DNA from: a virus
Taxonomy: Duplodnaviria; Caudoviricetes
Strand: one strand, 5' to 3'
Length of the DNA stretch: 37,917 nucleotides
Virus record (IMG/VR): IMGVR_UViG_3300010273_000004
Span: 1 to 37,917 of that record
In this document: positions 277 through 18,399 of the stretch, piece by piece
Numbering within the stretch: position 1 is the stretch's first letter
Layout: each line of letters opens with the position of its first letter
Position numbers and translations under genes: made by a program
The notes under the pieces: model-generated
Seen by the model: the letters and a program-made list of their open reading frames with translations, nothing else
Databases searched by the model: none
What the model was told of the DNA's origin: nothing

Positions 277-1791
277 ATGGCGATTTACAAATACGGTACA
301 CAGGAGCTTATGCCTCAGGGCTATCAACCGATCAGGGAGATCCTGGCCGGGATGGGCTACGGGCCTGACCAGGTCGACTGGAACCCGCAGACCAGGAATC
401 CCGTCGTGGCAGGGAAGGAACTGGACGCCTCAAAACTTCTATTTGGATCCGACCAGCGATATTATGCTACACCTGAAATACTCACTCCTATGCTTGCGCA
501 ACTCGGACTGTCTACCACACCTCAGAGGCAAACACAGTTCACAATCCCACAGTATCAATCGCCATATGAAGAGCAGTTGTCGCAAGTGCTGCAGCAGATT
601 GTAAACAGACCGTCATTTTCATATGATCCGAGTTCCGATGTTGGCTTCCAGCAGGCCCAGAAGTATATCCAGGATAAGATCATGTTGGACTTCGCACGCC
701 GCGGTATGTTGTATTCCCCGGCGACTGGCCAAGCTATAAGCGAGGGGATTGCAAACGCATTACCGCAGTATGAGCAGGCTGCATATCAGAGGTACCTGGA
801 TGAAGGCGAGCGGCTCAACAATATATTCAACGTACTGATGACACTTGACCAGAGATCTTTCAACTTGTATAAGGAAGCCGTCGACAATGAGTACAGGGAA
901 TGGGAAAGACAGAGGACCGAAAGGCTCGACCAGTTGGATGCCACTTACAAGCGCATAGACTATGCATTCAGGAAGCTCGATGAGCTTGAGGAAGCTGATA
1001 ACGAGATTGCTGCTATCCTCGGTATCCCAGTCGGAACAAAAAGCCAGGCGGCTAAAGAACGAGCAGAGGAAATGAAAAACAAGATCGAGCTCATGAAGTT
1101 GGAAGAGGAGCAAAGGATCCGCCAGGAACAGAGAACGCTGGCAAATGAGAAGGCGCTAATCGATTATCGTGCAAACATGGAGAAGCAGAAGGAAGAGGAA
1201 AGCCGGCTGGAGAACCTCGGCACTCCGGAGCAGCTCGATGCATATTATGAGTTCCTGAAGATCTATTCCGGCCAGGGGCGTAATAATACCTACCTCAATA
1301 ATCCATACGCAGCATATCAGCAGGTTGTCGGAAGGCGCGAGGAGCATGTGAAGCTACTCGGCGAAAAATTGTACCGTCAGCTGTTGAATGACATAGCGAG
1401 TATGATGGAAATGCAGAAAGCATATGCCCCTGAGGGAACGACATATGGGCCACAGAATTATAAGGATAATCCCGAATTCCACCAGGAAATGAATGATGCC
1501 ACTTCTGATCCGGAATCATGGCTGAAAATCTTTGAAGAATACTCCGACCTTTACTATGCGACTTATGGGATTGGCGGCGTGAATGAGCTCGTAAAGGCAG
1601 CGCAGGATAAACTCAATACTACCAGGAACGATACCCAGGCGCAGAAATATAACGAGTATTACAGGATGGCAGTCAGCGATCCCAAAGAGTTCAGGAGGAT
1701 GATGAGCGATAAACAGAAGCGTGCGCAGATCCTGGACGAGGTTGGTATCGATAACTTTGAAAAGCTTGAAGAGCTGGCCCAGAGAGATTAA
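277..1791 (+). CDS. Probable internal virion / DNA-ejection protein
   Basis: 504 aa, helical and Gln/Glu/Tyr-rich (YQSPY...FSYDP); lies before a giant helical ORF and the lysis genes in a phage with a P22-like portal. Confidence 0.55.
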   Translation: MAIYKYGTQELMPQGYQPIREILAGMGYGPDQVDWNPQTRNPVVAGKELDASKLLFGSDQRYYATPEILTPMLAQLGLSTTPQRQTQFTIPQYQSPYEEQLSQVLQQIVNRPSFSYDPSSDVGFQQAQKYIQDKIMLDFARRGMLYSPATGQAISEGIANALPQYEQAAYQRYLDEGERLNNIFNVLMTLDQRSFNLYKEAVDNEYREWERQRTERLDQLDATYKRIDYAFRKLDELEEADNEIAAILGIPVGTKSQAAKERAEEMKNKIELMKLEEEQRIRQEQRTLANEKALIDYRANMEKQKEEESRLENLGTPEQLDAYYEFLKIYSGQGRNNTYLNNPYAAYQQVVGRREEHVKLLGEKLYRQLLNDIASMMEMQKAYAPEGTTYGPQNYKDNPEFHQEMNDATSDPESWLKIFEEYSDLYYATYGIGGVNELVKAAQDKLNTTRNDTQAQKYNEYYRMAVSDPKEFRRMMSDKQKRAQILDEVGIDNFEKLEELAQRD

Positions 1792-1805: not shown

Positions 1806-4800
1806 ATGTCACTGTACAGGCAATTAACCGGTAAATCGGGATCAAGCACGAAAAATACTTCCGGGACGCAGACGACGATAAGTTTATATAGAAGGTTAAA
1901 GACCGACGAGGAGGAAGAGGAAAAGAAAGCTTCTGCAGCTGCAATCAGTAAAGCGCGGGAAGATGAATTCGACAAACGTGAGCAGGAGATCCGCCAGCTT
2001 GTCTATAAAAAAGGCCTGAAGGAGCTCGACGAAAAATACAAGGGTATGAGTACCCAGGCAAAGCTCGCGTCTCCGGAATACCAATCAGAACTTGCCCGTC
2101 TTGCAAAATCGACCGGATATTATACCGAACCGGCAGAACGGAACAGGATGTATTCCGCAGCTGCTACTGAAAGTGCATTACCTTACCTCGGTGAAAAGGC
2201 GAAAATAGGGCTCATGGAGTTTGGCCGTGGCCTCTCTGCTTTAAGTACGGTCGGTAAGTCCAGCGACATGAGCAAAACCCCGTCCCTGGCACAGAGGATC
2301 CAGGCGATGCAGTCGGAGGACCTGGCCAAGTTTGCTGAGGCCGAGGCCAGGAATGTGCCGAAAGGTATGAAGCTGGCCGGTGATATCGTCCAGGGAGCAG
2401 CAGGTATGGTGCCGTCAATAATGATGAGCGCCGTCAATCCTACAATGGGCCTTCAGATGATGGGACTGTCAGCTGCCGGCAGTTCTGCCCAGGAAGCAAT
2501 GTCGCAGGGCGCATCGAAAGCGCAGGCACTGGCATATGGCGGATTATCCGGAGCAATTGAGGTCGGTACCGAGTACCTCTTCGGCGGCATCCCGTTCATG
2601 AAGGGCGTCGGCGATAAAGTCACTGAATCGGTAGTAAAGCCGATCAAGAACAGAATCATCAGGACTGCAATCAGCAAAGGCCTTGACGGTATAGGTGAGG
2701 CAGTTGAGGAGATCATATCCGGGGCCCTGGATCCATACGCCAGGAGGATAACATTCGATCCGGATGCCGAGACAGCGACTGCAGAAGATCTTCTGTACGA
2801 GGGCGCGATCGGCTTCGGTGTGTCGGCTCTTCTTGGCCTTCCTGGAACGATTGTCGACGCAATCGGCCGCACACAGAAAACCATAACAGGTATCGATTCC
2901 GTCGACAAGGACGGCAATATCGTCATCACACTTGGCGACGATTCACACATGGTCGTAAATCCTTCCAAGATGAGCTATGAGGACCTGGAAACACTCAAAA
3001 GCTATCTGCCCGACGTGAAGAACAAGCAGCTGTCGAAACCGATGCGGGAAGTAAAGAAGGTCATCGACAAGGCTATGTCTGCAAAGGAAGTGAAAAACGA
3101 GCAGGTCATCCAGAGAGCTGCGGCAATAAAAGAGGCGCGATCAAGGGTATCAGCTGTGGCCGAGGCGCCGGCGTCGACAACAGCTAAAGTCGAGCAAGTA
3201 GCCGGCATCGGTACTGCAGCTGCGGCGACCGACACTACTGCAGCCAAGGCGGCAAAAGTTACGCCGGCAGAGACAAGCAAGATGGTTGAAACCGCTCCAT
3301 CGTCCACGGAAACAGGCCAATCGTTCACATATAAGGTAGGTGATACGGTCAGGATCCGGACCGGTGACATTACCCAGGAGATCAAGCTTACTTCTGTCAG
3401 AAAGTCGACGGTCGAGGGTACCACAGAGGACGGGAAACATCTGAGGTTCACGAAGCAGACATTTGAGGAGCGGCTCCGGGCTGCGACTGAACAGGAGAAG
3501 CAGCCGGATATATCCCTTGCCGATCATGCAGCTGTTGAAGAGATCGAAAAGGAGATATTCGGCGAGGTGCTCCCGAAGAAAATCAACCTGCAGCTGTTTG
3601 CCGAGAAGGTAAAGACAGCACGGGAGAGATTACTGGAAGAATTCAAGAAAGAGAAGGAAGCTATACGTTGGTATGCAAAAGAGAAGAGGGCCGCGGCACT
3701 GGAGAAGCTGAGCCAGAAGTATGAGGCGAAGATCGAGAAACTGAACAAGCTCCTGGATGCGGAGAAATATAAAAACTTCTGGAAGAGCGAGCTGGACAAG
3801 AAGGACTTCCGGGAGAAGATCGCCAAGCTTCGGGAGGAGAAAAACACCCAGATCGCCGAGATGAAAAAACAGTTTTCCGAAAAGCTCAAGGAAACAAAGA
3901 AAGAGTATACCCTGAAAAAATATGAGGCTGTCGGCAAGCTGAAGCTCAAGATGAAGGATAAGGCTGCTGCGGAGAAGGCAAAGGCCAGGGAACAGGCCGA
4001 GATCAATAAGAAGCTGCAGCAGCTCCGCAAAATCGATATAAAGCATATGAGGCCGGAATATAAGAGACAGGTGGAGGCCCTGCTCTCCGCTCTCGATATC
4101 ACGGCCAAAGCTCATACTCAAAAGAAACTTGCGGCACTGGCCAAGATGAAACAGTACATAGAGGCCAATCCGGATCACAACATCCCGGACCATGTGCTGA
4201 AGCAGCTTGACATCCTCAGCAAAAAGACTGTGTCTGAGCTTACAAAAGATGAGTTCGATGATATATATAACTCCGTCATGCACCTGGTTCACCTGGAGAA
4301 GATGAAGAACCGGCTCATCATGAAGGGCAGGTACCGCGAAGCAGCAGAAGTAGCAGCTGAGGCCGCGGCAAACGTTCTGAGAAACAGGCAGATCAAAACG
4401 GATCCTACGGCTATAGATACCAGCAAACCGGAGATGTCCAAAAACTTTGTAAAAGAGTTTTTCCTGAACCATCTGAATCCGGAAACGTTGACGATCATGT
4501 CCGACCAGGAGAGCGACGGCGTAATAAAGAAGATCCTTTTTGACGACATGTACGAAGGCCACAATAACGAATTGAAGTATAAGCATGATGCTTATGCCAT
4601 CTTTAAAGATTTTCTTGACGGCCTGGGCGGAGAGATCCGCAGCTGGAGCAGGAGCTTCAACAAGAAGCTGGCTGCCAAGGATCTCGTCGAGATCCCGATC
4701 AGTAAGCAGAAAGGACAGGATATAACCAAGATCCGGATCACGAAGGCTGAAAGGATATATCTCTATCTCGCTTTCAAGGATAAAGACGCCCTGCGGAGCA

Positions 4801-6437
4801 TACTCAAGGGCGGCGTGTCTTTTGGCAATAACCTCAGCCAGGTTGTCAGGCTCACTCCGGAGGATATCAAAACGATCAAGGAGAGCATGACAAAGGAGGA
4901 GCTGCAGTTCGCGGATCTGGCCGAAAAATACTTCCTGGATTATGCCCGCCCGCTCATGAACGAGGTGTTCCTGGAACTTAACGGGTACGAGCTGATCCCG
5001 GAGCGGAAAGGATATGTGCCGATAAAGAGACACCAGGACTTCCTGGACAGGGACTACCTCAAGATGAAAAACAAGACATTCTCCGTCTCCCTTGAGGGAA
5101 TGGGCCTCCTGAAGGAGCGTGTGAAGGCATCGTCCCCGATCGTGGCCGACGATATATTCCGCACGCTCGTTGAGCACATTGAGAAGATCGGCGCCTACTA
5201 TGGCTTGGCCAAACCACTGAGGAACGCGAAGATGCTCCTGGAGAACCCGAGGCTTAAGAACGCATACCGCCAGACCGGTATGTATGGAGTATACCAGCAG
5301 CTGAAGAAATACATCGACGACGTCGAAACCGGATCCGCTGACCTGGAATTTCTGGACAGACTGAGCCACAAGATCCGGAGCAAGTTTGCCACGTCCGTCC
5401 TGGGCGCAAACCCGTTCACGATCCTGAAGCAGTTCTCGGCATATATCCTCGAGACCAACGAGATCCCGGCCAAGTACCTAATGAAAGCACAGTTCACAAA
5501 GTCGGCCATCGATGAGATAGTGAAGTATTCGCCGATCCTGGCCGAGCGTGTTGAGGGCAATATCAGCCTGGAGCTCGGGGAGATCGGAAAGATTGCCCAG
5601 ATGAGGAAGCTGTTCGGTAACTATAAGGATATCCCGCAGCTGCTCACTAAGGGAATGGTGAAGGCTGACCGGCAGATCATCGCAAAGACCTGGAACGCAG
5701 TCAAGATGATGCTGCAGGAGAAGAATCCTTCCCTGTCCGGTGAAGAGCTGCTGACCATGACCGCCAGGAAAACCGAGGAGGTCATCCGGCATACGAACTC
5801 GGCGGCCACTATGTATGACAGGTCGGCTATTGGCCGGAGCAAGAGCGAATTCACGAAGGCTCTGACCATGTTCACGTCGCAGACCAACATAATGTTTAAC
5901 CAGGTTGTCCGGGCTGTGATGGAATACAACCAGGGCCAGAAAACCGCAAAGGACTTCAAAAAAGTGACTAAAAAGCTCGTGACCACCCTTGTCCTTGCTA
6001 ACATGGTCGAGCAGGCTATTGACCAGCTGCGCCTGAAAATAACCGGTAAAGGCGACGATGAAGATGAAGGCAAGTGGGATATCGTGATGGACATCGTCGA
6101 GGGGATCCTGAACCAGGTGTACTTTGTTGGTAAGATCTTCTCTGCATACCGCAGCAATGTCAAGTACGGAAAATACTTCGGGTATGATCTGACGACACCT
6201 GAATTCCAGGTAACGAAGCAGCTGATCGATTATGTCACGGACATTACGACCGTGATCCAGCAGGTGGCCTCAAAGGAGAGGTACAAGTCCGGACCGAACA
6301 AGGGCAAGCTGAAGTGGAAGAAAACTCTGCAGGGTCTGGTCGACGAAACCTTCTCGATCCTGGCCAAATTCACCGGTATACCGTACGATACGCCAAAGAA
6401 GATCGTTGAGGGTATCGTCGAGAAGGTAAAGGATTAG
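1806..6437 (+). CDS. Large internal virion / DNA-transfer (ejection) protein with an internal Prp-type cleavage motif
   Basis: 1543 aa; Gly/Ala-rich hydrophobic helices (about aa 130-350), KOW/SH3-like FTYKVGDTVRI domain, INLQLFA at aa 593-599, Lys/Glu coiled coil, helical C-terminus; last gene before lysis. Confidence 0.6.
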   Translation: MSLYRQLTGKSGSSTKNTSGTQTTISLYRRLKTDEEEEEKKASAAAISKAREDEFDKREQEIRQLVYKKGLKELDEKYKGMSTQAKLASPEYQSELARLAKSTGYYTEPAERNRMYSAAATESALPYLGEKAKIGLMEFGRGLSALSTVGKSSDMSKTPSLAQRIQAMQSEDLAKFAEAEARNVPKGMKLAGDIVQGAAGMVPSIMMSAVNPTMGLQMMGLSAAGSSAQEAMSQGASKAQALAYGGLSGAIEVGTEYLFGGIPFMKGVGDKVTESVVKPIKNRIIRTAISKGLDGIGEAVEEIISGALDPYARRITFDPDAETATAEDLLYEGAIGFGVSALLGLPGTIVDAIGRTQKTITGIDSVDKDGNIVITLGDDSHMVVNPSKMSYEDLETLKSYLPDVKNKQLSKPMREVKKVIDKAMSAKEVKNEQVIQRAAAIKEARSRVSAVAEAPASTTAKVEQVAGIGTAAAATDTTAAKAAKVTPAETSKMVETAPSSTETGQSFTYKVGDTVRIRTGDITQEIKLTSVRKSTVEGTTEDGKHLRFTKQTFEERLRAATEQEKQPDISLADHAAVEEIEKEIFGEVLPKKINLQLFAEKVKTARERLLEEFKKEKEAIRWYAKEKRAAALEKLSQKYEAKIEKLNKLLDAEKYKNFWKSELDKKDFREKIAKLREEKNTQIAEMKKQFSEKLKETKKEYTLKKYEAVGKLKLKMKDKAAAEKAKAREQAEINKKLQQLRKIDIKHMRPEYKRQVEALLSALDITAKAHTQKKLAALAKMKQYIEANPDHNIPDHVLKQLDILSKKTVSELTKDEFDDIYNSVMHLVHLEKMKNRLIMKGRYREAAEVAAEAAANVLRNRQIKTDPTAIDTSKPEMSKNFVKEFFLNHLNPETLTIMSDQESDGVIKKILFDDMYEGHNNELKYKHDAYAIFKDFLDGLGGEIRSWSRSFNKKLAAKDLVEIPISKQKGQDITKIRITKAERIYLYLAFKDKDALRSILKGGVSFGNNLSQVVRLTPEDIKTIKESMTKEELQFADLAEKYFLDYARPLMNEVFLELNGYELIPERKGYVPIKRHQDFLDRDYLKMKNKTFSVSLEGMGLLKERVKASSPIVADDIFRTLVEHIEKIGAYYGLAKPLRNAKMLLENPRLKNAYRQTGMYGVYQQLKKYIDDVETGSADLEFLDRLSHKIRSKFATSVLGANPFTILKQFSAYILETNEIPAKYLMKAQFTKSAIDEIVKYSPILAERVEGNISLELGEIGKIAQMRKLFGNYKDIPQLLTKGMVKADRQIIAKTWNAVKMMLQEKNPSLSGEELLTMTARKTEEVIRHTNSAATMYDRSAIGRSKSEFTKALTMFTSQTNIMFNQVVRAVMEYNQGQKTAKDFKKVTKKLVTTLVLANMVEQAIDQLRLKITGKGDDEDEGKWDIVMDIVEGILNQVYFVGKIFSAYRSNVKYGKYFGYDLTTPEFQVTKQLIDYVTDITTVIQQVASKERYKSGPNKGKLKWKKTLQGLVDETFSILAKFTGIPYDTPKKIVEGIVEKVKD

Positions 6438-10254: not shown

Positions 10255-10356
10255 GTACACATTTTGTGGACACACATAAACTATTTTGAAAAAAAGTGTT
10301 GACAACAGAGGACGCTAAGATTATAATTACAAATGTGGACGATTACAAAAGTAGAC
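10255..10356. promoter_or_regulatory. Repressor operator array (consensus about GTNNAC-AAAW-GTRRAC)
   Basis: Sites at 10255-10271, 10298-10313, 10325-10340 and 10341-10356; another copy at 10576-10591. Confidence 0.65.
10299..10327 (+). promoter_or_regulatory. Lytic early promoter (PR-like)
   Basis: Perfect TTGACA-N17-TATAAT overlapped by the operators. Confidence 0.9.
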
Positions 10357-11788: not shown

Positions 11789-12157
11789 ATGGAAAACATT
11801 TTTAGCAAAGACCAGCTGGTGATCGCCAACGATCCATTCGACGGCGAATATATCGGCCAGTATGTATCCCAGAATATGCTGACGGGTAAATCATCCTACG
11901 TCAAGATCCTTGCCTGCACGAGATACCCATCGCAGCGCACCATAGCATACGCCCACATCATGTACGAAAGAAAGCCGTATGAATACGGAAGCATACATCC
12001 GTTCGATGACGTTGAGATCCGGGCGTATGACGGGCCTGTGCCCGAGTACAACGAATCAGTCAGGATCGCTCTCGACAATGCGATCGAAGAGGCGGGAACA
12101 AACGGCAACATGAAGGTATTGGCTGCGCTGCGGAATCACAAACTGCAGATAGCATAG
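11789..12157 (+). CDS. Hypothetical protein
   Basis: 122 aa, SD AGGAGGTG. Confidence 0.7.
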   Translation: MENIFSKDQLVIANDPFDGEYIGQYVSQNMLTGKSSYVKILACTRYPSQRTIAYAHIMYERKPYEYGSIHPFDDVEIRAYDGPVPEYNESVRIALDNAIEEAGTNGNMKVLAALRNHKLQIA

Positions 12158-12218
12158 ACGGCGGTTATTGCTGCCGTCTTTTGCTTACTCAAAAATCGAT
12201 GAAAGGCAAGGTGTTTGT

Positions 12219-12593
12219 ATGGATATAAAGCAGAGACTTCTTGAACTCCCCGATCAGATTGCAGAGCTCGAGCAGGCAGTATTTAAAAAGCAGACGATGC
12301 TTGAGGAGATCCTGCAGCAGGAAAGAATCTGGGAGAGCGGCAAAATGGATGAAATCTGCAATGCCGTCGACGAGAACGGCAAACCGAAGTTCAGCAACGA
12401 CGCCAAGAGGCAGGCTGAACTGACGAGGCTCAAGTCGGCAGACGAAAAATACCTGGCTCTTGAAGCGGAGCGCAAGGCGTTCTTCCAGGATATCAGGATG
12501 GTCGAGATCGACATCAGGCGCCTGAGCAATCTCCAGAGCAATCTCCAGAGCAATCTCAGATCTATCTGCAGGCTCGAGTCTGAGTCTGCCTGA
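12219..12593 (+). CDS. Coiled-coil hypothetical protein
   Basis: MDIKQRLLELP...KPKFSNDAKR; contains a 12-bp tandem repeat (SNLQ) at 12525-12557. Confidence 0.7.
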   Translation: MDIKQRLLELPDQIAELEQAVFKKQTMLEEILQQERIWESGKMDEICNAVDENGKPKFSNDAKRQAELTRLKSADEKYLALEAERKAFFQDIRMVEIDIRRLSNLQSNLQSNLRSICRLESESA

Positions 12594-12615
12594 TCAAATA
12601 ACGGGAGGATCCAGC

Positions 12616-12849
12616 ATGACAAGCAAGGAGAAAAAGGTATACGAAACTATCGGCTTATTGATAGGGGCTGACGAGGATGTCATCGAATCTGATGCCAACC
12701 TCAAGGACGACCTGGAAATGGATGATATCGACCTGGTCGAAATGGCCATGACGCTTGAGGAGGAGTTCGACATCGATATCCCGGAAGAAAAGCTCAACGA
12801 GTTCCAGACAGTCCAGGATGTAGTCGACTTCATAGAGGATCTTGCCTGA
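12616..12849 (+). CDS. Acyl carrier protein-like protein lacking the phosphopantetheine serine
   Basis: ANLKDDLEMDDIDLVEMAMTLEEEFDIDIPEE...TVQDVVDFIE aligns to AcpP; DSL motif is DDI; SD GGGAGG. Confidence 0.9.
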   Translation: MTSKEKKVYETIGLLIGADEDVIESDANLKDDLEMDDIDLVEMAMTLEEEFDIDIPEEKLNEFQTVQDVVDFIEDLA

Positions 12850-12854
12850 TCAAC

Positions 12855-13059
12855 AAGGCGGTGGCGGAATCAGACGCTAATTTGGGGTTAAGGGATGGCG
12901 GACGCAGCAAGCCTACGTTGGAAGACAAGTCGGGTAAACAGCTGGAAGGTAGGGCCGCCAATAAACTGCGTGAAAATCATAAAATCCCCATGTCCCTAGT
13001 ATTAGGTGCCGACTAACACGCAGATAGTCCCGTGCAGGTAGCCAATCCTGCCCGCCTTG
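12855..13059 (+). ncRNA. tRNA-like structured RNA with a large insert replacing the anticodon loop
   Basis: Acceptor AAGGCGG/CCGCCTT, UG linker, D arm GCG-GAATCAGA-CGC, TAAT/ATTA stem, variable arm GACTA/TAGTC, T arm GCAGG-TAGCCAAT-CCTGC. Confidence 0.7.
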
Positions 13060-13218
13060 ATCCCCCTGAAAACCGTATAAGGAAGGGCTCCGATGATGTC
13101 CATGCCGGAACTTCAGCCAAGAAACCTGCCTGACGGCCGGTAATGGCAGGATGAGGCTGCAGGGAAAGCATGAACGGAGGAGCCCGCTAGTGAAGATAAA
13201 CCCGGTTTTACGATGGAT
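13060..13218 (+). ncRNA. Rod-shaped structured RNA with purine-rich internal loops
   Basis: Nested helices AAAACCG/CGGTTTT, GGGCTC/GAGCCC, CATGC/GCATG, CAGCC/GGCTG, CCTGCC/GGCAGG. Confidence 0.6.
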
Positions 13219-13297
13219 GAGTGAGCGATGTTGCGCGCGCGTTACAAAAGACAAAGGAGGCCGCCGGCCAGCCTCCCAAGTTATTAAATATGAGGGG

Positions 13298-13480
13298 ATG
13301 GGTTTATTGGATAAAAAAGAGTCCATTCGGATAGAGGCCATTCTGAACTACAAAAACGGAGAACTGGAATCCGTTTTGTTGTCTAAAGAAAGTTTTCTCA
13401 GCCTTATTTGTTCCGGTAAAGTCACCATCATGGTCGCAGGCCAGGATCTGTCAAAAAAAGCCTGTCGGCCAGGTAAATGA
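13298..13480 (+). CDS. Hypothetical small protein
   Basis: 3' part of ORF 13151-13480; SD GAGGGG favours a start at 13298 or TTG 13307. Confidence 0.5.
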   Translation: MGLLDKKESIRIEAILNYKNGELESVLLSKESFLSLICSGKVTIMVAGQDLSKKACRPGK

Positions 13481-13496: not shown

Positions 13497-14585
13497 GTGT
13501 CAAATATCGTTACTGCTGAAAATACCCAGGTAGTTCAGCTTGATAACTATAGGAGAGAAAAATACAACGTCCTGGTGCCGACAACGACAATGACTCAGAT
13601 CAGTCCTTTCCACAAGCTCCGCGTCGAGGAAGTCAAAATCGATCCCGATCCCGACCGTGGAGAAGTGTACAAAGTCGGCAGTAAGTATACCGGCAAGGAC
13701 AGCAATGGCGAGCCTATATACGAGGATGTCCTTGCTCTTTCCAAGACTGCACTCATGAAGATCGCTTCCGCTGCAGGCATCGTCTGGAACTGGAACGAGA
13801 CGAAGCCTTTATCTGTTTCCAGGGATTACGTACTGTACCAGGCGGTCGGTGCATTCCGGAAAGGTTCAGGAGAATGGTTGCCTCTCAAGGCCACAAAGGA
13901 GATAGATCTTCAGACCATTGAGGAGGAAACATACGAATCCAACCTGGAGAAGGCAAAGAAGCTGGCAAGCAGCAAGTACCAGGATGATAAAAAGAAACTG
14001 AATAATATGACGCCGGAGCAGTGGGCAGCTGCCCAGACAAAGGCGCACATGATCCAGTGGCGCAAGAACAAGCTCATGAGAGCGGAGACCGGTGCGATGC
14101 TGCGTGTGATCAGGGCCCTGCTTTCTATAAAACACCAGTACAGCCCGTCGGAGCTTAATAGACCTTTCATCGTTCCGCATGTTGACTTCTCGCCTGACTA
14201 TTCTGATCCGGAAGTCCGCAAGATGGTCATTGAGCATGGCCTGCAGGCGACGGCCGCGCTGTTCGGCAATGCATCTCCTACCAATCAGCAGCTCGCGGCC
14301 GGGCAGGTGCAGCAGATGAGCCAGCCGTTTGAGGCAGACAACTATGATTTCGACGAGGAACCGATCGACGGCGATTTCATGGAGCCTGCCGCCGATGAAC
14401 CTGAGGCTGTGCCCGAACCGGAGCCGGTGCAGGTCCAGGAGCCGGAGAAAGTCTCCCAGGATGAAATGACATGCGCAGATTGCGGCAAGAAATTGACAAA
14501 GGCAGAAGTCGATTACTGCCTTGCGTACTATGACGGTTTCTACTGCATAGCAGATCAGAAAAAGCACAGGAGGGTTGCACAATGA
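13497..14585 (+). CDS. Putative recombination / single-strand annealing protein with acidic tail and C-terminal Zn finger
   Basis: Coupled to sbcDC; RAETGAMLRVIRALL helix reminiscent of annealase C-terminal helices; acidic linker; CADC...C..C. Confidence 0.5.
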   Translation: MSNIVTAENTQVVQLDNYRREKYNVLVPTTTMTQISPFHKLRVEEVKIDPDPDRGEVYKVGSKYTGKDSNGEPIYEDVLALSKTALMKIASAAGIVWNWNETKPLSVSRDYVLYQAVGAFRKGSGEWLPLKATKEIDLQTIEEETYESNLEKAKKLASSKYQDDKKKLNNMTPEQWAAAQTKAHMIQWRKNKLMRAETGAMLRVIRALLSIKHQYSPSELNRPFIVPHVDFSPDYSDPEVRKMVIEHGLQATAALFGNASPTNQQLAAGQVQQMSQPFEADNYDFDEEPIDGDFMEPAADEPEAVPEPEPVQVQEPEKVSQDEMTCADCGKKLTKAEVDYCLAYYDGFYCIADQKKHRRVAQ

Positions 14586-15793
14586 AGATATTACTGGCAC
14601 CCGACCTGCATTGCTACTACAACAATTACGGGAAGGTACTTCCCAATGGCAAGCATTCCCGGTTTGAGGACTGGGAAAGTACCGCGGCCTGGCTGCTGCA
14701 GCATGCTGTCGACAACGATATCGACGTCGCTGTGTTCCCGGGTGATTTCTTCAAGAACAGCCGTCCGGATCCGGAGCAGGTCCTTTCTGTCGCGGAGCTT
14801 CTCAATACGTTTGCTACATATGGTATAGAGGTAATCGGTTGTCCGGGAAACCATGATCTGCTTGGTGCAGGAAAGACCGGCCCGGTCGACCTGGTCAAGT
14901 CCTTATGCGATGACATGTATGTCGGTATCACAAATGTACCGGACGTATTCAGGTGCTGCCATGACACAGTCAATATCGCTGTACTGCCTAACATAAAACC
15001 TGCGGGCCTTATAGACGCCGTCGCCGATCCTGCAGAGATGGCGATGCTCATATCTCAGAAGCTCGTCGACATAGCCAGGAGCCTTATCGTTCAGTGCCAT
15101 GAGATAGGACCCGGCTGCAAAAATGTGCTGATCGGCCACTGGACAATATCGGGATCCGTCGCGTCATCCGGGCAGTTGCTTTATGGCAGTACTGAGCCTG
15201 TTATCCCGCTGAATGAACTGCTGGCCATGGAGTGGGATGCCGTTCTGTTTGGCCACATCCACAAGGCCCAGGTATTGAACGAAAAGCCGTTCGTGGGTTA
15301 TGCCGGAGCGCTGGAGCGCGTCGACTTCGGAGAAGAGGACGATCCCCGCGGATGTTATGTCATTGATCTGGACTCAGGATCCTACGAGTGGATCGATCTG
15401 CCGGCGCGGAAGTTCTGCACTATATCAGCAGATATAAAGAGCTCCGACGATATCGCCGCACTGTACGAGGATCTTTCACTGTCACTTGCCCATAACAAAG
15501 CGACCAACAAGATTGTTCGTGTGAAATACAAGGTCACGGAAGAACTTGCTCCTATGGTGGATCACTCGGAGATTATGAGGCTTTTGCAAGCGGCAGCACC
15601 GGCATATATCACAGGCATTTACCCGGAGATCGAGATGACGGACAGGAGCAGGGAGGCATCCGTCACCGAGGATACCGGCCCGATCGATGCCCTCAAAAAG
15701 TGGCTCGACGCAAAGGATATCCACGGAGAAATAATCAGGGGTCGAATTATCGGTTTGGCAACTGACCTGATTATGGAGGTGCTGTCTGAATGA
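14582..15793 (+). CDS. sbcD: SbcD/Mre11-family metallophosphoesterase nuclease
   Basis: DLH, GDFF, GNHD, GH and GHIH motifs; YAGALERVDFGE. Confidence 0.93.
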   Translation: MKILLAPDLHCYYNNYGKVLPNGKHSRFEDWESTAAWLLQHAVDNDIDVAVFPGDFFKNSRPDPEQVLSVAELLNTFATYGIEVIGCPGNHDLLGAGKTGPVDLVKSLCDDMYVGITNVPDVFRCCHDTVNIAVLPNIKPAGLIDAVADPAEMAMLISQKLVDIARSLIVQCHEIGPGCKNVLIGHWTISGSVASSGQLLYGSTEPVIPLNELLAMEWDAVLFGHIHKAQVLNEKPFVGYAGALERVDFGEEDDPRGCYVIDLDSGSYEWIDLPARKFCTISADIKSSDDIAALYEDLSLSLAHNKATNKIVRVKYKVTEELAPMVDHSEIMRLLQAAAPAYITGIYPEIEMTDRSREASVTEDTGPIDALKKWLDAKDIHGEIIRGRIIGLATDLIMEVLSE

Positions 15794-18399
15794 TTCCAGT
15801 CGAAATAAAGCTCAAAAATTTCACTTCATATAAAGACGAAACCGTCAATCTGGAAGGTTTCGATATCGCAGTCGCGACGGGAGAGAACGGAGCCGGCAAA
15901 AGCTCCCTGGCCACCGATGCAATTACCTGGTGCCTGTTCGGTGAGGGCAGCAAGGGCGGGAGGAAAAACATGAACGATTACGTCAGGCGCGGCGAGCAGG
16001 AGTGCCGTGTCGAGCTGCAGTTCAGGCTTGGGAATGATTTGTACAGGGTCGTACGCCACCGGTCCGTGGCCAAGGACAAAACAATGCTCGAGTTTTTCGT
16101 CTGGGGCATGGATCCTCAGGACGGTACCGAGAAATGGATCCCGAGATCCGGAAAGGGAATAGCGGATACCCAGGAGATCATCGAGAGAACGCTCCGGATG
16201 GACTACCGCACATTTACGTCATCGTCTCTGATCCTGCAGGGGAAATCGGATAGCTTCACCAGCGACATGACGGACGCCGAGAGGAAAGACGCTCTGGCCA
16301 GGATCCTCGGCCTGGACATTTGGGACAGACTGCAGGAGAAGGTGAAGGCAGGCATGAAGCAGCTGAACGAAAAGGTGAATCAGTTCTCAGCCAAGAAAGA
16401 ACCTCTTCAGGCCAGAATAGAAGATGCGGTATCGACTGAGAAGCAGCTGCAGGAGACCAGGAAGCAACTCGCAGAGTGCGAGAAGATCATTCATGATCTG
16501 CAGGTAGAAATCGATGGTATCAACGCTCAGTTGGCCAGAAAGAAAGTCCTTGAAGAAAAATCAGAAGAGCTTTCGAGAAAAAGGAAGGCTCTGGAGGATG
16601 ATGAGAAAAAGCTCAGGGACGAGATAGCTGCGTTAAACGTGAAAATCGCTGGTATCAAATATGCACTCGAGAGAAAAAAGGATGTCGAGCTGGCCATCGA
16701 AAAGGAAAAGTTCCTGGCTGAGAAGATTGCTGAGATCGAGAAGGAACTGGCCAAAAAGCCATTACTCGAACAGCAGAAGGATGATCTCGAGAAACAGATC
16801 TCCCAGGCAGAAGCTGAGATGTCCAGGCTCAAAAATGAGGCCGCCAACATTGACGTCGAACTCATAGAACTCCAGGACATTATCAAAAGGAAGGATGATA
16901 TCCTGGCTGCCTGCGAAAGTGAACAGGAACTTGTTGCTGAGCTTTCAGAACATGAGCAGGCTTCAAAGAGATACATGGAACTCAGCAAAGCGATGGAGAC
17001 TGTATTCAAGCAAGCCAGCGACTGGAAAGCGAAGCATGACGCAGAGATCGCAAGCATACAGACTGAGATCCAGGCAAAGCAGCCGCTTGTTGAAACCCTT
17101 GAAAGAGTTCCATGTAGCGGAACGGATAAGGAGACATGTCCGCTGCTGGCCAGTGCCAGATCGGCTGCAGAAGATCTCATCTATCTCGGTGACAGGCTTT
17201 CATCAGAATTAGCCAAAGACAATCCTTACAAAGACCATTATAAGAAGCTCGCCGATGAAAGGACCCGGCTCAAGTACGATGCTAATCAGCATGCAGCATG
17301 CAAGAATCTCCTGGAAGAGGTCCGGAAAATATCCAGCCTCAAGGTTAAGTTGGATGCTGCTGAAGTGCGCAAGGTCGAGTTGGAGAATCGCGATGCTGAG
17401 ATCAAGCAGCGTATGAAGGAAATCGAGGTCACCGATGATCAGAAGCAAAAACTTGCTCAGCTTGCATCAGATATCTCCTTGTTGGCATCCAAGGAGAGGA
17501 ATCTTCCTGAATATCGCCAGGAGATGGCCGAGGCACAAAAACTCACCGGGAAGAAAGCAGAGATCGACAGCCAGGAAGCTCTCCTTCCGGAAATGGAATC
17601 GCTGCTTGCAAATGCTGATGAAAAACTCGGTAAGATCATCAGTGACATTCAGGCAATAGATGGCCAGGATCTTGACGTAAATATCCAAATAGCCGAAATC
17701 GACCACCTATCCGATGTTCTGCAGGAGAAAACATCTCAGTTGCAATTCTTCAAAGGCAACGAATCATCCTGTCGTACGGCCATTGGCGGGTATGAGCAGT
17801 ACCTCAAGGACGCAGCTGCAGCAAGGAAGGAACTCGATGAGATAGAAACTGCAGAAAAAGATCTGAAATCCCAACTGGCCACATACGAGATCCTCGAGAA
17901 GGCCTGCGGCAAAAAGTCAGGCGTGCCGGCGCTGATCATCGAAAATGCGGTACCCGAGATCGAACGCCTGGCCAACGACATGCTGAACAGGATCACCGGC
18001 GGCAGGATGCAGCTGAGGCTTGAAACCCAGATCGAGGGCAAGAGCACCGGCGTCATGCAGGACGTCCTCCGGATCACAATTCTCGATGAAGGTCTCCCTG
18101 GACCATATCAGACATTCTCCGGAGCCGAAAGGTTCATCATCGATATTAGCCTCCGTGTGGCTATATCGAAGTTCCTGGCCCATCGTGCCGGCGCTGAGAT
18201 CAAGCTGCTGGTAATCGATGAGGGTTTTGGTTCCCTTGACGCTACAGGCCGACAGAAGATCCTCGATGTTATAAACACAGTCCGCCAAGACTTTGAAAAG
18301 GTGATCATCATCACCCACCTGGATGAACTCAAGGACGCTTTCCCGAGGAGGATCGAAGTCACCAAGGGACCAGACGGCAGCAAGGTACATGTGGCATAA
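15790..18399 (+). CDS. sbcC: SbcC/Rad50-family SMC-like ATPase
   Basis: LKNF, Walker A GENGAGKS, Q-loop LQG, long coiled coil, signature FSGAE, Walker B LVIDE, D-loop GSLD, H-loop ITH. Confidence 0.95.
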   Translation: MIPVEIKLKNFTSYKDETVNLEGFDIAVATGENGAGKSSLATDAITWCLFGEGSKGGRKNMNDYVRRGEQECRVELQFRLGNDLYRVVRHRSVAKDKTMLEFFVWGMDPQDGTEKWIPRSGKGIADTQEIIERTLRMDYRTFTSSSLILQGKSDSFTSDMTDAERKDALARILGLDIWDRLQEKVKAGMKQLNEKVNQFSAKKEPLQARIEDAVSTEKQLQETRKQLAECEKIIHDLQVEIDGINAQLARKKVLEEKSEELSRKRKALEDDEKKLRDEIAALNVKIAGIKYALERKKDVELAIEKEKFLAEKIAEIEKELAKKPLLEQQKDDLEKQISQAEAEMSRLKNEAANIDVELIELQDIIKRKDDILAACESEQELVAELSEHEQASKRYMELSKAMETVFKQASDWKAKHDAEIASIQTEIQAKQPLVETLERVPCSGTDKETCPLLASARSAAEDLIYLGDRLSSELAKDNPYKDHYKKLADERTRLKYDANQHAACKNLLEEVRKISSLKVKLDAAEVRKVELENRDAEIKQRMKEIEVTDDQKQKLAQLASDISLLASKERNLPEYRQEMAEAQKLTGKKAEIDSQEALLPEMESLLANADEKLGKIISDIQAIDGQDLDVNIQIAEIDHLSDVLQEKTSQLQFFKGNESSCRTAIGGYEQYLKDAAAARKELDEIETAEKDLKSQLATYEILEKACGKKSGVPALIIENAVPEIERLANDMLNRITGGRMQLRLETQIEGKSTGVMQDVLRITILDEGLPGPYQTFSGAERFIIDISLRVAISKFLAHRAGAEIKLLVIDEGFGSLDATGRQKILDVINTVRQDFEKVIIITHLDELKDAFPRRIEVTKGPDGSKVHVA

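Follow-up and report, generated by a model that had tools for sequence, protein, structure and literature searches.

The stretch of DNA analysed here, subsequently called the window, is the complete 37,917-nucleotide sequence of the IMG/VR virus record IMGVR_UViG_3300010273_000004 (Duplodnaviria; Caudoviricetes), a linear record that is estimated to be 65% complete. It encodes a serine integrase, CI-like and Cro-like regulators, SbcD, SbcC, a replication initiator, a terminase and head genes. Since a serine integrase, a CI-like repressor, a terminase and related genes are present, the phage is temperate. On the plus strand, after cro (10361) and before sbcD/sbcC, lies a small gene for a protein resembling acyl carrier protein (ACP), in which an aspartate occupies the position of the phosphopantetheine-bearing serine. 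The following features are referred to below, including comparisons with two related phage loci, L005 and L015.

10299..10327, plus strand: 12/12 match to a sigma-70-type promoter before cro, likely driving the rightward early genes (consensus match only).
12219..12593, plus strand: upstream neighbour gene, whose helical product belongs to no named family and gives a weak lead to UvsY; in the window as well as in L005 and L015 it directly precedes the ACP-like gene.
12603..12608, plus strand: Shine-Dalgarno sequence GGGAGG, 7 nt 5' of the ATG (from the sequence).
12616..12849, plus strand: ORF of the serine-less ACP-like protein, 77 aa with 26 Asp/Glu and 5 Lys (ORF call, profiles, model).
12721..12768, plus strand: Asp36 and helix II (residues 37-51), the partner-recognition helix of ACPs (alignment and model; roles taken from papers).
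12724..12726, plus strand: GAT codon of Asp37 at the phosphopantetheine-serine position, predicted first residue of helix II (alignment, model).
14582..18399, plus strand: genes for an SbcD-like and an SbcC/Rad50-like protein, context only; their synteny holds in this lineage, and the earlier note proposed SbcC as a candidate partner (profiles, locus comparison).

The gene had been assigned to an early lytic operon in the earlier note. This assignment stands insofar as the gene follows cro on the plus strand with a promoter upstream; however, a terminator-like hairpin (12156-12179) intervenes between the cro promoter and the ACP-like gene. Membership in one early operon is likely. The adjoining upstream gene carries a 12-nt duplication (12525-12552, plus strand), which adds a four-residue repeat and is missing in the relatives. 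Positions 11789-12157 (plus strand) encode a protein that exceeds the cut-off of PF08810 and is thus a phage counterpart of KapB, which is associated with sporulation kinases; the gene is kept in L005 and L015 and may touch host sporulation signalling. Two large proteins encoded before the lysis genes, of 1543 aa (1806-6437, plus strand) and 504 aa (277-1791, plus strand), match PHROGs of unknown function only and are possibly ejection proteins of a podovirus-like virion. PADLOC returned no meaningful defence-system match. No fab, acpS or PPTase-type Pfam families were found among the 56 ORFs of this 65% complete record, and a profile scan run without an explicit positive control gave no Fab or PlsX match in the window or in three related loci. 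The nearest cellular trace in a genome scan was a contig of a Clostridia MAG carrying a neighbour gene of 54% identity, and sets of 30 and 34 genomes around this MAG yielded nothing further. The phage lineage is probably clostridial. Bacillota ACPs that share the DLEMD/DLDMD motif were considered as donors of the gene and rejected, as they are only 34-37% identical.

Two conserved non-coding elements follow the ACP-like gene. The first, directly 3' of it (12854-13060, plus strand; about 5393-5554 in L005 and about 5263-5373 in L015), is tRNA-shaped by eye and in MFE folding, with an 8-bp acceptor-like stem (including a compensatory pair in L015), a D-arm and a T-arm, while a long core, unrelated among the three phages, replaces the anticodon arm. 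ARAGORN, Rfam and RNAalifold did not recover this element, and its single-strand z was 0.39. The second is a conserved stretch with complementary ends (13085-13185, plus strand), which looks like a long hairpin RNA; L005 has it in nearly the same form, and L015 in a changed form that can still be aligned; an ORF overlapping it (13151-13480) has no good ribosome site.

The ACP-like ORF is intact and preceded by the strong Shine-Dalgarno sequence, as the earlier note had stated, and the AcpP fold signature that it had recognized was borne out by the structure comparisons and by PF00550. The protein scores 47.1 bits with PF00550 (cut-off 20.8) and matches the phage ACP family phrog_5934 with an E-value of 1.5e-15, a label that does not separate members having Ser at the site from those having Asp or Glu. 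With TIGR00517 it scores 63.4 (cut-off 70.45), while a homologue with Glu at the site, P0005, exceeds the cut-off of NF002148 (74.2 versus 71). An AlphaFold2 model computed from a 58-row alignment (pLDDT 92.7) predicts the helical bundle typical of ACPs, with helix II beginning at residue 37. Foldseek placed this model at TM 0.86-0.90 to the best solved, type II, ACPs, VIA-align gave a Z of 14.5 and an rmsd of 1.2 over 77 residues to type II ACPs, and a search of the ESM Atlas returned ACP clusters alone. The DSL motif, with which helix II begins, has lost its serine: in an ungapped alignment to solved ACPs, LEMDDID of the window protein stands against LGADSLD, and Asp37 lies opposite the carrier serine. 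The only serines of the protein are S3 and S25, i.e. none is near the site. Ser codons are at least two base changes away from Asp and from Glu codons alike, as the earlier note had stated for Asp37. The net charge is -21, and the charge per residue ranks 4th of 183. The presence of an AcpP-like ORF with Asp at the phosphopantetheine serine is thus confirmed.

Homologues of the gene were compared. The identical protein is encoded on 25 contigs, and an identical gene copy occurs in the independent bioreactor metagenome contig L003; therefore, the aspartate is not a sequencing error. Three variants of 96-99% identity keep Asp and two of about 75% have Glu. In L005 the site residue is Glu (GAG), and the dN/dS of the ACP-like gene between window and L005 is 0.18, next to values of 0.12-0.17 for three neighbour genes and a fourth neighbour without any amino-acid change. 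In the more distant phage L015, whose neighbour genes are 63-70% identical, an ACP-like gene occupies the same slot; its product is only 33-36% identical, and has Asp (GAT) at the site and Ser one position earlier. In this L015 gene (5020-5253, plus strand) the motif residues D-S are swapped to S-D and the first 18 residues are identical to those of a serine-bearing ACP, P0157, and judging from the sequence it possibly represents an independent capture into the same slot. Scans of viral sequences with the alignment of close homologues or with the KapB-like neighbour gave no matches. Contigs from RNA runs of anaerobic digesters hold a relative whose flanks resemble the Glu-type allele of L005; they span the 3' two-thirds of the gene in three of the four runs compared, out of 18, and may be DNA. 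The earlier note had reasoned that close relatives all having Ser, or a dN/dS near 1, would speak for a decaying allele or an error. The relatives have Asp or Glu, never Ser, and the ratio is far below 1. A captured acpP in decay, or an error, has next to no probability: its one supporting observation is the strong divergence of the N-terminal third (55% identity to L005), and against it stand the 25 contigs, the dN/dS of 0.18 and the intact ORFs and ribosome sites in three phage lineages, in all of which the site is acidic. These data confirm that the serine-less gene is kept under purifying selection and reflects neither error nor decay.

A minority of viral ACP-like genes shares the acidic residue. 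IMG/VR was searched with a degenerate motif representing the helix II pattern of ACPs with Asp or Glu at the site, and 33 of the 35 loci obtained (24 Glu, 9 Asp) proved ACP-like with an HMM for which short ACP hits had served as input. A residue-blind motif permitting any codon at the site matched about 870 stretches; among the 120 listed, 119 were ACP-like and had Ser (110), Glu (8) or Ala (1) at the site. Counted as distinct motifs, there were 88 with Ser, 7 with Glu and 1 with Ala, that is, an acid occupied the site in 7 of the 8 motifs without Ser, and Thr and Pro did not occur. Asp/Glu forms make up between about 4% (33/~870) and 7% (8/119) of the motif-caught viral ACP-like genes, counts that ignore kinship and derive from a filter that misses diverged copies. 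The same motif detected Ser in 258 of 401 bacterial genomes of the phylum of G004 (261 matches) and Asp/Glu in none, a difference from the viral set with a Fisher p of 7e-5 when kinship is ignored. In GenBank, 110 phage records matched; 12 cultured phages, about one per lineage among the 60 records listed, were opened, and the site was Ser in nine, Asp in phiW-14 (gp117) and Glu in Serratia phage 3M and in a fusion with rIIB in Aeromonas phage ZPAH1. One representative, P0094, has Pro. Tabulating this position across phage homologues, as suggested in the earlier note, hence reveals an acidic minority that recurs far more often than chance would allow.

Origins of the acidic forms were addressed with a set of 235 sequences, reduced to 204 distinct domains and 185 rows of less than 90% identity, from which long Ackermannviridae-like forms were lost through the coverage filter. 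Most of the 34 Asp/Glu rows were nearest to a Ser ACP. A quick tree of 74 columns was mostly unresolved, with three starred branches; its 24 label changes are biased, since the Ser rows had been chosen as nearest neighbours. In an AU test with 25 Asp/Glu rows (nine long-branched or near-duplicate ones left out) and the 19 nearest Ser rows, a single Asp/Glu clade was rejected at p-AU 0.03. Repeated origin of these forms has modest support in this alignment, as a single origin is weakly rejected. No gene recurred beside the Asp/Glu loci across distant lineages when 24 loci were compared. A scan without an explicit positive control found no fab genes near any of the 33 Asp/Glu loci nor near 73 viral Ser loci, and no PPTase was found in any of 24 Asp/Glu records, a set made up of L015 and, after removal of near-duplicates, 23 of the 33. 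Several Asp/Glu domains are parts of larger proteins, namely fusions with a ThyX-like protein (L025, 3899-5431, minus strand) and with rIIB (L179, 1096-2340, plus strand), and a domain joined to a small unnamed domain (L040, 3680-4141, plus strand). The multi-domain proteins P0010, P0011, P0018, P0035, P0044, P0070 and P0089 carry tandem ACP domains, some with Ser and some with Asp/Glu, and include lipoprotein-like proteins and a TPR-thioredoxin protein. Serine-less Asp/Glu domains occur in P0010, P0011, P0018, P0035 and P0044, which are partly of probably cellular origin.

Next to the altered site, the surface by which ACPs are recognized is preserved. Helix II is the ACP surface shared by lipid enzymes and non-lipid partners, and an S36T ACP can neither be modified nor replace acpP (both from parts of PMC3340395). 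IscS binding depends on D35, D38 and S36, and the S36T exchange abolishes it, according to a portion of PMC13343975, and AcpS pairs with D35, E41 and E47/E48 of ACP, according to a portion of 10.1101/2025.01.28.635281. Helix II of the window protein keeps D36, D39, E42, M45, E48, E49 and F51, corresponding to D35, D38, E41, M44, E47, E48 and F50 of E. coli ACP, and all the acids needed by IscS and AcpS are therefore present. When 34 Asp/Glu domains were compared with 149 Ser ACPs, M44, E48, F50, I54 and D56 (E. coli numbering) proved equally conserved. In contrast, A59 and I62, which we take to line the acyl pocket, were kept in 7/34 versus 73/149 and in 10/34 versus 80/149 sequences, respectively, differences with p-values that take account neither of the 14 tests made nor of kinship. 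The Asp/Glu group also drifted at L37 and V40. At the positions of A59 and I62 the window protein has Leu and Phe, which by sequence are bulkier. Overall, the Asp/Glu group is no more acidic than the Ser ACPs (p 0.51). Taken together, the acidic docking helix is preserved, in contrast to the acyl pocket, whose residues have drifted.

We consider it probable that the window protein acts as an unmodifiable look-alike of loaded (holo- or acyl-) ACP, which would dock on a host ACP partner. The starting point is the combination of an AcpP fold, a missing site serine and purifying selection. By established chemistry, no phosphopantetheine would be attached without the serine, and no acyl thioester would be carried at this position. 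The earlier note had called the protein catalytically dead, and the absent serine would indeed preclude a classical carrier role, in a gene that selection maintains. The carboxylate might then stand in for the charge of the phosphodiester of holo-ACP; such charge mimicry would explain why phages reach Asp or Glu by two base changes rather than Thr, Ala or Pro by one. The term phosphomimetic used in the earlier note should be read with this qualification, as Asp37 is also the predicted first residue of helix II. Docking through helix II would occupy and block the ACP-binding site of the host partner; the action would come early in infection, and the mimic could not be turned over. The target may, about evenly, be a lipid-synthesis or regulatory protein (AcpS, PlsX, Fab enzymes, FapR) or an ACP-dependent stress or anti-phage protein. 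The earlier note also named Tn7 TnsD and the tRNA-acetylating toxin TacT as ACP partners; our literature search found no paper confirming these links. SpoT, named as a partner in the earlier note, is unlikely, since it is confined to beta- and gamma-proteobacteria (PMC3340395, in part) and the host is probably clostridial. Host ACP is very abundant (about 100 µM in E. coli, as given in part of PMC8602292); therefore, a decoy requires high expression or affinity. Several points count against a decoy: no partner was recovered; distant lineages share no neighbour gene, and PADLOC gave no match; acids are favoured at helix starts in any case; Ser phage ACPs, which are the majority, likewise lack fab neighbours (0/73); the ThyX and rIIB fusions fit a docking module for phage proteins equally well; Asp/Glu domains occur in multi-domain proteins that are partly probably cellular; and the tree is poorly resolved.

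Such a docking module is the core of an alternative that we regard as unlikely, in which the protein serves the phage alone, as structural cofactor or adaptor of one of its own proteins, either SbcC/Rad50, as AcpP is for MukB, or the helical protein encoded upstream, and frees the phage from host ACP. The synteny of the upstream gene and sbcD/sbcC in the window, L005 and L015 fits this idea, as do the fusions of Asp/Glu-ACP domains to ThyX and rIIB, an ACP-fold match in a phage NTP-pyrophosphohydrolase (BFVD W6E8I3; fold-level only) and the activation of MukB by AcpP without need of its arm (PMC8602292, in part). However, an SbcC-like match (PF13476) is present in only 9 of 24 Asp/Glu-ACP records and in 4 of the 10 complete ones, so that obligate co-occurrence with an SMC-like gene holds in the window lineage only, and no neighbour gene recurs across distant lineages. 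The SMC-like protein of this phage also scores as Rad50/SbcC and not as MukB. Moreover, apo- and holo-AcpP stimulate MukB equally (PMC8602292, in part), leaving nothing that would select for an acid; therefore, the MukB analogy does not explain the acidic residue. The role as SbcC cofactor put forward in the earlier note is weak on these grounds, with six of the ten complete phages lacking an SbcC-like match. A predicted complex of the ACP-like protein with phage SbcC scored 0.00, which, with an SbcC alignment of two rows, gives no answer either way.

Asp and Glu are favoured at helix starts for stability alone. Accordingly, the ACP fold might serve as a stable acidic scaffold only, akin to a DNA mimic or a generic polyanion inhibitor; with the serine no longer needed, Asp or Glu would have become fixed because an acid fits well into the first turn of helix II. 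The position of D37 at the helix start, the high net charge, the Pro in P0094 and the location of the gene among DNA-metabolism genes agree with this idea, which we nonetheless judge quite improbable: the one-step helix-start residues Thr, Pro and Ala account for just one of nine non-Ser cases (binomial p 0.001 with an assumed acid prior of 30%), ACP-specific surface residues stay conserved, and the Asp/Glu group shows no higher overall acidity. That the protein is still a carrier, with cargo bound to the carboxylate or to another residue, as in LysW and other amino-group carrier proteins, is highly improbable. The restriction of the site to carboxylates in these phage lineages and the Ser one position earlier in L015 could be cited in its favour, but Asp and Glu interchange within one lineage, both serines of the window protein lie away from the site, the pocket residues are bulkier, and neither the window nor the records checked show a gene for a ligase, a PPTase or a Fab enzyme. 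Returning to the look-alike of loaded ACP, we propose tentatively, and with rather little confidence, that phages of several hosts have repeatedly made captured acpP genes into unmodifiable holo-ACP mimics, which jam an undescribed class of bacterial systems, directed against phages or stress, by which loaded ACP is used, sensed or destroyed. If so, the Asp/Glu forms would act as inhibitors, Ser phage ACPs would replace the host copy, and the mimic could be used as bait for such systems.

Phage ACPs have been treated as helpers of lipid metabolism (PMC8224337 and PMC5463345, in part), or their function has been called unclear (PMC5463345, in part). The consulted portions of PMC8224337, PMC5463345, PMC13573597 and PMC10892097 make no mention of a missing serine, and a literature search, which covered subscription journals and supplements such as tables of anti-defence screens only little, found no description of serine-less phage ACPs. 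The gene represents a recurrent, selected serine-less variant of a known fold that is apparently undescribed. About 4-7% of motif-caught viral ACP-like genes would be unable to serve lipid synthesis, although some of them exceed curated cut-offs for ACPs and carry a wrong label. That an acid was chosen repeatedly suggests a conflict of phage and host centred on ACP, of which we found no description. Cultured phages carry such genes, making the idea directly testable, and an ACP mimic that is unmodifiable by nature would be of use for probing the interfaces between ACP and its partners, or as a scaffold for inhibitors of them.

Compared with AcpP of bacterial type II fatty acid synthesis (PF00550, TIGR00517; PDB 1l0h, 2x2b, 1f80), the window protein has the same helical fold, length and acidic helix II at 35-50% identity, but differs by Asp in place of the absolutely conserved Ser, by bulkier pocket residues and by being encoded by a lone phage gene without fab or acpS. 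By sequence, it resembles the binding surface of AcpP and is not an AcpP, as the defining serine is absent. The auxiliary genes annotated as acyl carrier protein in phages (phrog_5934; P-HM1, ICP1 gp97, Ralstonia phage RP13) are likewise lone ACP-like genes among small phage genes; most of them keep Ser, whereas the window belongs to the acidic minority together with Serratia phage 3M, phiW-14 gp117 and the rIIB fusion of ZPAH1. The non-lipid roles of AcpP with MukB, SpoT and IscS also rely on the surface and helix II rather than on cargo, but there the serine-bearing host ACP is used. Apo-ACP is reportedly a potent growth inhibitor, to go by the title of a 1995 paper by Keating. Engineered S36T or apo-ACP shares with the window protein that it is unmodifiable; the latter, however, is natural, selected and acidic, and whereas S36T loses IscS binding, Asp or Glu might, by analogy, keep charge-dependent contacts.
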